Of a DNA stretch of 64,000 nucleotides, positions 54,036-59,385 are shown piece by piece. The notes under the pieces are model-generated. The model did not search any database. It worked only from the letters and a program-made list of their open reading frames with translations, and was not told the DNA's origin. How positions within the stretch are numbered: the stretch's first letter is position 1; every line of letters begins with the position of its first letter. The position numbers and the translations under genes were made by a program. The DNA is taken from NCBI GenBank assembly GCA_963665845.2, contig OY762492.1, positions 3,424,001-3,488,000 of the forward strand. Reading direction: 5' to 3'. This DNA comes from Candidatus Poribacteria bacterium (GTDB lineage Bacteria; Poribacteria; WGA-4E; GCA-2687025).

Positions 54036-57000
54036 ATGAAACTCACACGTGACGTACCCCCCCCCCCCCCCCCCCCCCCCCCGCGCTTGGTCCGCTGCTC
54101 TAGCGGCGGCGCTTCTCTGCGCATGGCTCGTTGCTGAAAACAGCAGCGCGCAACAGGTCCTGACAGGGCATACGGATGATGTCAGGTCCGTGGCGTATTC
54201 GCCGGACGGTCAGACGATCGCCAGCGGCAGCGCCGACGGCACAATCCGCATCTGGAATCCAGCGACGGGCGCGCATGTCCGAACGCTGGAAGAAAACGAA
54301 ACCAGAGTTTTCGCTGTGGGCTATTCGCCGGACGGTCAGACGATCGCCAGCGGAAACTTCTACAACACGATAAGCGTCTGGAACGCTCAAACAGGCGCGC
54401 ATCTCAAAACCCTGGAAGAGCGCGTGAACGGCGCGAGCGTCTGTAGAGTAGGCGACGTCCTACAGCCCGGAGACAGCTGCTATTATCCGGGAACTGACAT
54501 TGTGATTCGCGCTGAGGGCGGAAGCCTTATCATTGGAGGCGCATCCTTCTCTGGGGCAACCATAAATCTCCAGGGCGTTACCATCGGCGGCGTACGCATC
54601 TCCATTACTGCCGTACGCGACGGAAATTCTTATAGAATTTCCGGAATTGCGAGCGCGTCCGCTGTCTACTCGGTGTCGTATTCGCCAGACGGAACGCGAA
54701 TTGTCAGCGGCGGCGGCGGCGGCAGCGGCGACGACACGATTCGGATCTGGAACGCCGAGACGGGCGAACTCATACGAACGCTTGAAGGGCATACGGGTAT
54801 TGTCTGGTCTGTGGCGTATTCACCGGACGGTCAGATGATCGCCAGCGGCAGCTGGGACGACATGATTCGGATCTGGAACGCCAACACGGGCGAACTCATA
54901 CGAACGCTTGAAGGGCATACAGATAATGTCTATTCTGTGATGTATTCACCGGACGGTCAGACGATCGCCAGCGGCAGCGCCGACGACACGATTCGGATCT
55001 GGAACGCCAACACGGGAGCGCACATACGAACCCTCCAAGGACATACGAATACAGTCCTTTCTGTCCTTTCTGTGGCATATTCGCCGGATGGTCAAACGAT
55101 CGCCAGCGGCAGCGCCGACGACACGATTCGGATCTGGAACGCCAACACGGGAGCGCATCTACGAACCCTCCAGGGACATACGGATGTAGTCCTGTCCGTG
55201 GCCTATTCACCGGACGGTCAGACGATCGCCAGCGGCAGCTGGGACGACACGATCCGCCTCTGGGACATCAGCGACCTCGCCGCTCCTGTAGACCGCCCAA
55301 CGGCGACCGTCTCCGGCCCGAGTGAGACGCAAACAGGCGCGTTCGATGTGACCATCGAGTTCAGCTCCGCCGTCACAGGTTTCGAGTCGTCCGACATTGT
55401 TGTGACGAACGGCTCTGTGACCAATCTTGCCGGCAGCGGCGCATCCTACACGGCAACGATTCAACCGTCCAGCACAGGAGCCGTTACGGTGAGCGTCCCC
55501 GCCAACGCCGCGGGGAACAACACCGCTTCCAACACCTACTCTGTCAACGCTGAAACCGGAGGGCCGCAGGTCCTGACAGGGCATACGGATGATGTCTTTT
55601 CTGTGGCGTATTCTCCGGACGGTCAAACGATCGCCAGCGGCAGCAGGGACGACACGATCCGCATCTGGAACGCCAACACGGGAGCGCACATACGAACCCT
55701 CCAAGGACATACGAATATAGTCCTTTCTGTGGCATATTCGCCGGATGGTCAAACGATCGCCAGCGGCAGCGTCGACGCCACGATTCGGATCTGGAACGCC
55801 AACACGGGAGCGCATCTACGAACCCTCCAGGGACATACGCGTGTAGTCACATCCGTGGCCTATTCACCGAACGGTCAGACGCTTGCCAGCGGCGGCTTCG
55901 ACAACACGGTTCGGATTTGGAACGCCAACACGGGAGCGCATCTACGAACCCTCCAGGGACATACGGATCAGGTATGGTCCGTGGCATATTCACCGGACAG
56001 TCAGATGATCGCCAGCGGCAGCGCCGACGCCACGATTCGGATCTGGAACGCCAACACGGGCGAACTCATACGAACGCTTGAAGGGCATACAGATTATGTC
56101 TATTCTGTGATGTATTCACCGGACGGTCAGACGATCGCCAGCGGCAGCGTCGACGCCACGATTCGGATCTGGAACGCCAACACGGGAGCGCACATACGAA
56201 CCCTCCAAGGACATACGAATACAGTCCTTTCTGTGGCATATTCGCCGGATGGTCAAACGATCGCCAGCGGCAGCTGGGACGACATGATTCGGATCTGGAA
56301 CGCCAACACGGGAGCGCATCTACGAACCCTCCAGGGACATACGGATGGAGTCCTTTCTGTGGCGTATTCGCCGGATGGTCAGACGATCGCCAGCGGCAGT
56401 TACGACGATACGATACGCATCTGGGACATCAGCGACCTCGCCGCTCCTGTAGACGGCCCAACGGCGACCGTCTCCGGCCCGAGCGAGACGCAGACAGGCG
56501 CGTTCGATGTGACCATCGAGTTCAGCTCCGCCGTCACAGGTTTCGAGTCGTCCGACATCGCTGTGACGAACGGCTCTGTGACCAATCTTGCCGGCAGCGG
56601 CGCAAGCTACACGGCGACGATTCAGCCGTCCAGCTTCGGAGCCTTTACCGTTACGGTGAGCGTTCCCGCCAACGCCGCGGGCAACAGAGCCTCCAACACC
56701 TACACGGTCAACGTTGAAATCGGAGCGCTGCGGGTCCTGACAGGACATACGGACCCGGTCTGGTCTGTGGCGTATTCGCCGGACGGTCAGACGATCGCCA
56801 GCGGAAGCTCGGACGACACGATACGCATCTGGAACGCCAACACAGGGGAGCCTCTCAGAACCCTCCAGGGACATACGAGTACTGTCAGGTCTGTGGCGTA
56901 TTCACCGGACGGTCAGTCGCTCGCCAGCGGCAGCTACGACAACACGATACGCATCTGGAACGCCAACACTGGCGCGCATCTACGAACCCTCCAGGGACAT

Positions 57001-59385
57001 ACGAATTGGGTCAGGTCTGTGGCATATTCTCCGGACGGTCTGACGATCGCCAGCGGCAGCAACGACAACACGGTTCGGATCTGGAACGCCAACACTGGCG
57101 CGCATCTACGAACCCTCCAGGGACATACGGGTCAGGTCTGGTCCGTGGCGTATTCACCGGATGGTCAGACGATCGCCAGCGGCAGCGGCAGCGTCGACAA
57201 CACGATACGCATCTGGGACGCGAACACGGGAGAGCATCTCCGAACCCTCCGAGGGCAGTCTTGGGTCACCTCTGTGGCATATTCGCCGGACGGTCAGACG
57301 CTCGCCAGCGGCAGCAGAGACCAAGCAAATCCAATTCGGGTCTGGGACGCGAACACGGGAGCGCATCTACGAACCCTCCATGGACATACGAATCCAATCC
57401 TTTCTGTAGCGTATTCACCTGACGGTCAGACGATCGCCAGCGGCAGCGGCGACGACACAATCCGCATCTGGAACGCCAACACAGGGGCGCATCTACGAAC
57501 CCTCCAGGGACATACGGGTACGGTATGGTCCGTGGCGTATTCGCCGGATGGTCAGACGATCGCCAGCGGCAGCTGGGATGAGACGATTCGGATCTGGGAC
57601 ATCAGCGACCTCGCCGCTCCTGTAGACCGCCCAACGGCGACCGTCTCCGGCCCGAGTGAGACGCAGACAGGCGCGTTCGATGTGACCATCGAGTTCAGCT
57701 CCGCCGTCACAGGTTTCGAGTCGTCCGACATTATTGTGACGAACGGCTCTGTGACCAATCTTGCCGGCAGCGGCGCAAGCTACACGGCAACGATTCAACC
57801 GACAGGCGATGGCGCTGTTACGGTGAGCGTCCCCGCCAACGCCGCGGGCAACAACACCGCCTCTGACGCCTACTCTGTCAACTACGAACCGCCTTTGTTT
57901 GCGCATACGGGCGGCATTTTAGCGGCGGCGTATTCATCTGACGGAACCCGCATCGCCACCGCCTCCGCGGACGATACGGCGCTCATCTGGGATGCCGACG
58001 CGGAAACGCCGCTCCTTGAACTGACGGAGCATACGGTTGATGTCCGCTCCGCCGCCTTTTCGCCGGACGGAACCATGCTCGCCACCGGCAGCGCCGACGA
58101 CACGATACGCCTCTGGAACGCTGAAACGGGCGCGCATATTCGAACGCTGGCGGGACACACGGGCGACGTCTATGCGCTAGACTATTCGCCGGACGGCGCG
58201 ACCATCGTCAGCGCAAGCGGCGACCGTACAGTTCGGCTCTGGAACGCCGAAACCGGGGAGCTTGTCAAGACGATGACGCAGCATGCGGGGGTTGTTCGGA
58301 CAGCCGTCTTCTCTCCTGACGGAACGCTCATCGCCAGCGGCGGCGCCGACCGTACCGTGCGCCTCTGGAACGCGCAAACCGGCAAGCTTCTCTCCACGCT
58401 GAAAGAGCATGGGCGGACGATCTACTCGGTCGCCTTTTCACCCGACGGAACGGTTTTGGCAAGCGGCAGCGCCGACAAAACGATTCGTTTTTGGGATGTT
58501 TCGTCGCAGTCGCTTCTCCATACCCGTACGGTGGGCGGGTCTGCGGGTCTCGTGTTTTCGGTCGCCTTTTCGCCGGACGGTTCCACGCTCGCTTCCGGGA
58601 ACGAGGATGGGACCGTCCATCTCTGGGCGTCCGGAAACGGCCGGCATAAAGAGACGCTAGAGGGACATACGGGAACCGTTTACGCGGTCGCCTATTCGCC
58701 CGACGGTCAAACGCTCATCAGCGGAAGCCGCGACAAGACGCTGCGCTTCTGGTCAATGCCGAAGCCCAATCTCGATCTGAACGGCGACGGCGTCGTGGAC
58801 GCGGCGGATCTGCAGATGGTCGCCAACAGCTACGGCGGCTCCGATCCGAACGCGGATGTGAACGGGGACGGCGTCGTGGATGTGAACGACGTTCTGCTGA
58901 TCGCGGACGCCCTGGCGAACGCGCAGGCGGTCGCGGCGGCTCCGGCGTTGGCGTCGTTGCGGGAGGCGCCGTCCTTTCCGCAGGTGTCCAGCTGGCTGAA
59001 CGACGCGAATGGGCTGATTGTCCGCAGCGATTCGGCAAAGCGGGGCATCGCCGTTTTGGAGGAGATGCTTCGGTCATCGCTGCCGGTTGTGTCCACCAGC
59101 GCGCTTCTGCCGAACTACCCGAACCCGTTCAACCCAGAGACCTGGATCCCGTTTGAGTTGGCGGAAACGTCCCGCGTAAAGTTGACGATCTACAACTCAT
59201 CGGGTCAAACCGTGCGCGTGTTGGAGCTTGGGCAGTTGCCGGCGGGCGCCTACCGCAGCCGCGCCAAAGCCGCCCATTGGGACGGACGGAACAATCTGGG
59301 CGAACCTGTCGCCAGCGGCATGTATTATGTCCGCATTGAGGCGGGGTCGTTCACGGCGCTGCGGCGCATGGTTGTGCTGAAGTAA
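54036..59385 (+). CDS. Giant secreted WD40 protein: 3 x (7-blade propeller + Ig-like), fourth propeller, dockerin-like and FlgD/T9SS-like C-terminal domain; RBS-supported ATG 54036 is out of frame at a poly-C tract (in-frame GTG at 54049)
   Basis: About 28 WD40 units [25 protein letters not shown]; three [19 protein letters not shown]g-like units; [26 protein letters not shown]. Confidence 0.9.
54057..54082 (+). repeat. C26 homopolymer in the signal-peptide coding region
   Basis: 26 consecutive C. Confidence 0.95.

Follow-up and report, generated by a model that had tools for sequence, protein, structure and literature searches.

In this study, we analyzed a 64,000-nucleotide window of contig OY762492.1 (positions 3,424,001 to 3,488,000) from a Candidatus Poribacteria genome and found that a single unbroken 5.3-kb open frame within it (54049-59385 of the window, plus strand) encodes a WD40 protein of 28 blades (b1 to b28) in four groups of seven. 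Our interpretation, to which we assign a probability of about 0.62, is that this is a likely exported protein in which three variable propellers are carried on immunoglobulin (Ig)-like stalks, together with a conserved propeller and a type IX secretion system (T9SS)-type tail, and that recombination swaps cassettes of the predicted binding face while selection keeps the diversity. The genome examined comprises three contigs, totals 3.98 Mb, and is 90% complete; the gene lies on the 3.95-Mb contig C1, to which coordinates labeled G000:C1 refer.

The first 21 blades, which extend from 54154 to approximately 57600 with a period of 126 bp, share a common scaffold. This count agrees with the approximately 21 units of about 126 bp described in the original prediction, which was made from the letters alone, and the residue sets that it listed were all present: DD, GI, DN, NT, DV, NI, RV, DQ, DY, DG, DP, ST, NW, GQ, NP, and GT after GHT; R, F, W, Y, L, and T in V-x-S; and A, W, R, V, Y, S, N, and G in GS-x-D, where F was additionally found in b10. 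The blades had been called nearly identical in DNA, a description that holds for the existence of a shared scaffold but not for the degree of identity, which averaged 82% (range, 72 to 97%) over the 18 blades b4 to b21 (codons 5 to 34). The DNA alignment omits b3 and was freed of the indels that occur in b6, b18, and b19. In the scaffold of the 18 aligned blades, the proportion of synonymous differences (pS) was 0.30 and that of nonsynonymous differences (pN) was 0.053. The scaffold identity, hotspot pN/pS, and codon-model analyses were conducted on gap-free blades only (16 of 21), among which scaffold-only DNA identity was 0.90. The longest exact repeats reached 78 bp, and the full DHSW tetrad was present in 18 of the 19 blades tested.

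Variation is concentrated in a few columns: column entropy was highest at columns 9 (3.2 bits), 27 (3.0 bits), and 11 (2.3 bits), and columns 8 and 29 were the next most variable. The spacing of the variable columns fits positions 12, 14, 30, and 32 of the fungal HNWD receptors (PMC12222747), the exact register being provisional. By the sequence rule given by Wu et al. (PMC3419727), columns 9, 11, and 27 are assigned to R1-2, R1, and D-1, the top-face hotspots of WD40 propellers in that paper, a set that predates this analysis. The earlier suggestion that the variable sites form the propeller top is consistent with this assignment, since they match these hotspots and their neighbors.

Selection appears to act differently on these positions and on the scaffold. 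In this gene, hotspot pN was 0.73, compared with a scaffold pN of 0.04 and a scaffold pS of 0.29, and hotspot pN ranged from 0.50 to 0.75 in all 19 genes with at least five blades. Codon models with a shared synonymous rate gave ratios of nonsynonymous to synonymous change (omega) of 20 to 80 at the hotspots and of 0.13 to 0.30 in the scaffold; when the synonymous rate was left free (grid), omega at R1-2/R1 still exceeded 1 both in this gene (p=0.04) and in three genes (p=1.5e-7). It could be argued that the hotspots are simply drifting surface positions and that the mosaic blades described below come from assembly collapse or polishing: surface loops tolerate change, short-read polishing can blend repeats, and 30 to 41% of the sampled 31-mers of 53300-59800 are missing from the four best sequencing runs (X1 to X4), a deficit that alleles or dropped contigs could explain. 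However, hotspot pN does not equal scaffold pS but is 2.5 times as high, and in propeller 4 purifying selection acts on the same positions. In addition, the frame of 5.3 kb runs unbroken on a 3.95-Mb contig, contigs from four runs match 54326-54700 without a difference, and two match b21, as outlined below. We consider such a neutral or artifactual origin highly improbable.

The comparison with propeller 4 (b22 to b28) is firmer evidence than omega, because recombination inflates omega estimates. At the same hotspot sites in this propeller, omega was approximately 0.3. Hotspots were compared between genes by position and in seven-blade groups only, because the blade pattern misses some blades and D-1 residues. 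On this basis, propeller 4 shares 14 to 18 of 20 hotspot residues with each of the five other genes compared (paralogs and genes of other species), and the sharing amounts to 85 to 90% at a scaffold identity of 0.84 to 0.91. For propellers 1 to 3, in contrast, 0 to 25% of hotspot residues were shared in the 18 comparisons listed at a scaffold identity above 0.86, which is near the level of a shifted control (5 to 13%). Since its face is under purifying selection, propeller 4 may bind a fixed anchor or secretion partner.

Intragenic shuffling in propellers 1 and 2 is statistically supported. A permutation test of the pairwise homoplasy index (PHI) type on b4 to b14 gave a p value of 3.3e-4 for all sites and of 3.3e-4 to 6.7e-4 for scaffold sites alone. 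Rare markers recur in these propellers, namely, SVMYSPDG in b5 and b12, a 10-residue marker ahead of b4, b5, and b12, and WDDMIR in b4 and b13. The original prediction had read this recurrence as new combinations; part of it reflects a block duplication (propeller plus Big_12) that relates propellers 1 and 2 at an offset of 1161 to 1170 bp, yet partners switch within the block. Thus, b5 combines the left half of b12 with the right half of b6, the right half of b12 is that of b9, and b13 has its left half as in b6 and its right half as in b4. Half-repeat shuffling, as originally proposed, is therefore upheld for propellers 1 and 2 (p about 3e-4) but not for propeller 3. The closest blade pairs (b5/b12, b6/b9, and b6/b13) differ at only two or three codons, and all of these differences are nonsynonymous and lie at or beside hotspots.

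Other sequencing runs were compared at both ends of the gene, which, of the variable blades, covers b1 to b3 and b21. Four runs belong to study P1 and may include the source sample; their contigs agree with 54326-54700 at every letter. In run X5 (study P2), one 550-nucleotide contig with a depth of 5.55 equals 57490-58014 except for four letters, which are exactly those of b18 and of no other blade among the 16 tested, and which change R1-2 of b21 from Thr to Gln. The contig joins a b18-type left half to the right half of b21 and, being unbroken, would fit a b18-b21 crossover better than conversion. Coverage of X5 extended to 17 of 30 bins, and uncovered parts were not read as absence; X6 is a relative (flank approximately 97% alike) rather than this strain, and X7 to X10 (shares of 0.05 to 0.07) were excluded. 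Conspecific alleles were also sought by a DNA pattern in metagenome contigs (zero matches), by the protein sequence of the 87-residue insert in metagenome contigs (zero relatives among 598 candidates), and by exact protein look-up (0 of 3 present), but these negatives carry no weight, as near-identical records may be absent from the collections searched. A wrong join could have arisen because b18 and b21 share a 30-nucleotide run, an overlap at which a 31-mer assembly can misjoin; however, it would require that the b21-type word just left of this run be missing while its neighbor is present, and we judge that the contig is probably a real recombinant allele.

Several observations weigh against recombination and selection as continuing sources of variation. 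With a free synonymous rate, omega at D-1 was not significantly greater than 1 (p=0.08 and 0.19), and all tree-based omega values are subject to the inflation by recombination noted above. The PHI-type test gave no mosaic signal in b15 to b21 (propeller 3; p=0.35 to 0.99) and was not significant on amino-acid-invariant codons alone, where 6 to 10 sites were informative. The X5 allele rests on a single low-depth contig, its crossover falls within a run that has eight occurrences in the genome, and PMC12222747 documents short-read chimeras of repeats of this kind; at the b21 hotspot codon, X1 and X4 carry only the letters of the window. The 180 exact matches of at least 28 bp with other genes do not establish cassette exchange between genes, as a hotspot codon lies inside only 24 of them. 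Furthermore, propeller 3 of the gene at G000:C1:2668346-2672317 and its ortholog in genome G001, which are of the same blade type, keep 18 of 20 hotspot residues across two species; therefore, blade-to-blade variety alone is no proof of ongoing variation. Among paralogs, for example those at 1080498 and 1087213, 50 to 70% of the hotspot residues are kept. Together, the ortholog pair and these paralogs suggest that faces can be frozen or can drift gradually. The other propeller of this ortholog pair consists, in G001 (L016:7230-11105), mostly of two blade types in alternation.

Alternatively, the blades may have been amplified recently, in the manner of WRAP proteins, with each face tuned once for a fixed partner and now conserved and with the mosaics as relics of amplification. 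The 18 of 20 residues kept by the ortholog pair, the lack of a mosaic signal in propeller 3, and the b21 sequences of X1 and X4 all agree with such an account, and ongoing amplification of new propellers is documented in PMC9218822. However, frozen faces do not readily account for blade pairs whose few differences are all nonsynonymous and at or next to hotspots, for the recombinant-looking contig of X5, or for the result that no face of propellers 1 to 3 was found in any propeller compared. We regard this account as unlikely and favor cassette exchange under selection.

Under cassette exchange, each blade would carry two variable cassettes, GH-x-x-V-x and GS-x-D-x, set between near-constant scaffold arms of 30 to 60 bp. 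A cassette would move to another blade when the arms undergo ordinary homologous recombination, gene conversion, or replication slippage; recombination would also keep the blades alike, and point mutations would supply new residues. It can be imagined that changing partners, such as host proteins, phage, or neighbors in host tissue, would select for new faces. Export would proceed first by the Sec signal peptide and next by a T9SS-like route, with propeller 4 and the tail in a fixed role. Such a process would amount to the HNWD regime of concerted evolution plus diversifying selection, operating in an extracellular bacterial protein over many generations.

The original prediction went further and envisaged a diversity-generating recognition system coupled to a poly-C switch. 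Diversity-generating retroelements and cassette conversion of the pilE/pilS type also combine a constant scaffold with variable binding codons, and a dedicated generator, with programmed high-rate shuffling, a poly-C switch, and many variants in one population, would be in keeping with the cassette-and-arm anatomy, with a donor pool of approximately 25 propellers on one scaffold, with the abundant hairpin repeats upstream, and with the only long homopolymer of the genome lying in the signal-peptide region of this gene, where the points at which the X1 and X4 contigs end are compatible with run lengths that are mixed or differ (judged from lengths only). However, there were zero matches to the reverse transcriptase family RVT_1 (PF00078) in the 90%-complete genome, no blade copy was found outside long frames in the genome and hence no orphan or silent cassette, and no template repeat was found; A was involved in just 4 of the 16 differences among the four closest blade pairs, which is not an adenine bias. 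A retroelement was rejected on the first two of these grounds together with the last. In addition, no recombinase gene was seen among the flanking genes tested, MutS is present in the genome, scaffold pS is 0.30, the closest paralog has no poly-C run, and sequencing stutter explains mixed run lengths equally well. A dedicated generator is, in our view, very unlikely, and only the simpler part of the proposal, a repeat-shuffling variable binder, is supported, given the hotspot-restricted variation, the shuffling in propellers 1 and 2, the fast hotspot codons, and the X5 contig.

The poly-C run deserves separate consideration. It is the sole homopolymer longer than 12 in the 3.98-Mb genome, and it sits in the 5' coding region, where it sets the frame. 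With 26 C's, ATG codons at 53997 and 54036 are out of frame and lead to a stop at 54137, and run lengths of 22, 25, 28, or 31 would restore the frame; the in-frame GTG at 54049 has no evident ribosome site. The region 53877-54160 is 87% identical to the 5' end of the paralog at G000:C1:1195211-1202314, and the closest paralog has the same N terminus in frame, with an A plus five C's in place of the run. Contigs of this gene stop 32 letters past 54045 in X1 and 41 letters past it in X4, in keeping with a long run whose length is mixed or differs. We suggest only tentatively that the run may add an on/off switch to this single paralog.

The gene belongs to a large family. A blade-profile search of the genome returned 114 frames with 1190 matches, and the tail motif ends 34 of the 114 WD40 frames. 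Nine genes share one scaffold, with DNA identity of 0.83 to 0.90 that is about equal between and within genes, and hold about 25 propellers of this type. For 5 of 16 blades the nearest scaffold lies in another gene, a pattern that shared descent explains equally well. Repetitive WD40 proteins with the same variable columns were present in all six class-level relatives examined, at a scaffold identity of 0.72 to 0.88. At the syntenic site of a sister species, acrB is followed by approximately 50 bp and then by the downstream gene, and the entire 5.8-kb gene is absent together with the upstream hairpins; therefore, the family turns over. This gain or loss sits next to hairpin repeats, one of which, 21 nucleotides long, has 883 matches with at most two mismatches on contig C1. 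Older WD40 genes with greater divergence were also seen, in tandem arrays of six to nine (G000:C1:1881490-1902675, 949686-963935, 604467-615366, and 3176693-3190053). A more ambitious proposal is that these genes form a library of approximately 25 exported WD40 faces on one DNA scaffold, reshuffled by cassette exchange so rapidly that it differs from one host population to another, with a poly-C switch on one member, as an outward-facing bacterial counterpart of the HNWD allorecognition receptors that needs no reverse transcriptase; we find this conceivable but rather doubtful.

The coordinates of the features are collected in Table 1. The 21-blade array of the original prediction is thereby extended by three Big_12 spacers, one after each of propellers 1 to 3, by an 87-residue insert in propeller 1, and by the conserved fourth propeller, none of which it had described; the 9-bp duplication that it reported was located in b6. 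An AlphaFold2 model of propeller 1 had a mean confidence score (pLDDT) of 85, and its top Foldseek matches to seven-blade propellers (target template modeling score, 0.95) were WRAP designs, PkwA, and 2YMU; for propeller 2, the top sequence match in the PDB was 2YMU (E=1.6e-183). The Big_12 copies have exact repeats of 54 to 74 bp in common. The terminal cassette of propeller, dockerin-like pair, and tail (57889-59385) occurs in at least seven genes in two species.

Table 1. Features of the WD40 gene and its surroundings (window coordinates unless a contig is named)
Feature	Position	Strand	Basis or remark
Intergenic hairpin repeats, genome-wide family, between acrB and the promoter region of the gene	53648..53880	.	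many 80-95% copies elsewhere
Upstream region, AAGGAG Shine-Dalgarno-like site	53877..53996	+	common to paralog G000:C1:1195211-1202314
Probable start codon (ATG 53997 or 54036); signal peptide, predicted, with the end SSA/Q	53997..54153	+	paralog N terminus in frame; peptide judged by eye
Poly-C run of 26, candidate phase-variation tract	54057..54082	+	sequence
Propeller 1 (b1-b7), variable top face	54154..55278	+	AlphaFold2 model, Foldseek
87-residue insert between b2 and b3, in place of the top-face GH-x-x loop of b3; small two-cysteine beta module	54412..54672	+	sequence, model
9-bp tandem duplication in b6 (VLS twice)	55054..55071	+	sequence
Big_12 Ig-like spacer 1	55279..55566	+	PF19078, E=5.5e-12; further copies at ~56437-56730 and ~57610-57888
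Propeller 2 (b8-b14); top face variable, blades mosaic with those of propeller 1	55567..56436	+	PHI-type test, segment partners
Propeller 3 (b15-b21); top face variable, internal mosaicism not significant	56731..57609	+	PHI-type test; b21 left half is that of b18 in one X5 contig
Propeller 4 (b22-b28), divergent blades, conserved top face	57889..58752	+	hotspot comparison with five other genes; omega ~0.3
Dockerin/EF-hand-like pair	58762..58930	+	PF00404, E=5.5e-7
FlgD-Ig / T9SS type A sorting-domain-like C terminus and stop	59110..59385	+	TIGR04183, PF18962, PF13860
Terminal-cassette paralogs	G000:C1:3854542-3858489, 3025735-3029421, 433939-439746; L015, L016, L017		
Syntenic site compared	53619-59458 vs L021:11120-11168		

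The protein is likely exported, as judged from its predicted signal peptide and T9SS-type tail. The C terminus matches TIGR04183 with 30.2 bits (cutoff, 23) and also matches PF18962 and PF13860. Genes with modest SprA-, PorV-, and PorP-like matches above the Pfam cutoffs were noted at G000:C1:937272-937658, 1875496-1876068, 3741002-3741556, and 2953648-2954184; Kamke et al. 2014 (PMC3909097) found no structural Por genes in Poribacteria. The listed Pfam and NCBIfam matches include no NACHT/STAND ATPase and no N-terminal effector, and the domains found fill the protein. For the 87-residue insert, a Pfam search gave nothing below E=0.04 and an Atlas search gave no usable match; one homolog, the lipoprotein-like protein P0001, has it in three copies, and matches occurred in 11 of 40 relatives, mostly inside long open frames. 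An Rfam scan of the whole window gave zero matches. Upstream of acrB lies a membrane-fusion protein with PDZ and TPR parts ahead of its HlyD part (48280-50499), and at 61908-63979 are two similar-looking tandem proteins that have hydrophobic N-terminal segments and lack a Pfam match. Another long frame (G000:C1:3437058-3442757), which has seven WD40 blades and the same tail motif, contains a 321-bp tandem repeat (14912-16947; 6.3 copies at 86%), and 102-bp repeats of TPR length (3.7 copies at 76%) occur at 19902-20319.

These data place the protein in the highly repetitive (HR) WD40 class, which, in the account of Hu et al. 2017 (PMC5587647), occurs in bacteria and fungi and has its diversity concentrated at hotspot sites. 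That class is defined by pairwise identities that all exceed 0.7 among six repeats out of eight contiguous ones; here we obtained 0.74 over all 42 columns and 0.79 to 0.80 for masked or core columns, using our own alignment and windows that cross propellers; inside a single propeller, the best six repeats reach just 0.67. High internal identity, near-complete DHSW tetrads, hotspot diversity, and a seven-blade fold are common to this protein and the HR WD40 proteins as described in PMC5587647, where high identity is interpreted as young age. Unlike the members as described there, this protein is predicted to be exported, contains Ig spacers, and combines variable propellers with one that is frozen, although the supplementary lists of that paper may include similar proteins.

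The fungal HNWD/NWD NOD-like receptors, such as HET-D/E/R of Podospora anserina, provide a close parallel in mode of evolution. As presented in PMC4986451 and PMC12222747, they share with this gene 126-bp repeats that are more than 80% identical, membership in a multigene family, shuffling within genes (here in propellers 1 and 2), and, it appears, diversifying selection on a few interaction-face codons per repeat (omega here exceeded 1 at R1-2/R1 but not significantly at D-1). Instead of a NACHT/STAND or HET effector domain, this protein has a signal peptide and a T9SS-type tail; it would work like the HNWD sensors by analogy, yet it is not one of them. The WRAP proteins, exemplified by Nostoc Npun_R6612 (PDB 2YMU) in PMC9218822, likewise have seven-blade propellers amplified from one blade and rapid gene turnover, but in the description given there they are attached to a STAND ATPase that has a TIR partner, and they show almost no synonymous change, whereas here scaffold pS is 0.30 and the hotspots are near saturation. 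Poribacteria, best known as sponge symbionts, are rich in eukaryote-like repeat proteins, WD40 proteins among them, whose targets are given as unknown in PMC3909097. The same paper provides a precedent from the same phylum, a pairing of WD40 with the Por C-terminal domain (TIGR04183), but it counted domains, whereas the present analysis addresses variation at the level of blades and found SprA-, PorV-, and PorP-like matches over the cutoffs. A search of the open-access literature turned up no paper that deals with variation at the level of blades, or with shuffling, in the WD40 proteins of Poribacteria or sponge symbionts.

In conclusion, hotspot-variable repetitive WD40 proteins in bacteria and HNWD shuffling under selection are already known, and the likely exported multipropeller repertoire of this bacterium is a new variant rather than a new machine. 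It offers a built-in experiment, with three fast-changing faces beside one frozen face on the same chain and a natural family of variants on one scaffold, and these variants are a natural guide to the positions of a propeller scaffold that tolerate change. If the faces are frozen, the protein is an ordinary HR WD40 protein; should the variation prove allelic and ongoing, an arms race or partner matching at the cell surface would be indicated, and exported bacterial proteins would join the HNWD receptors in their mode of evolution.

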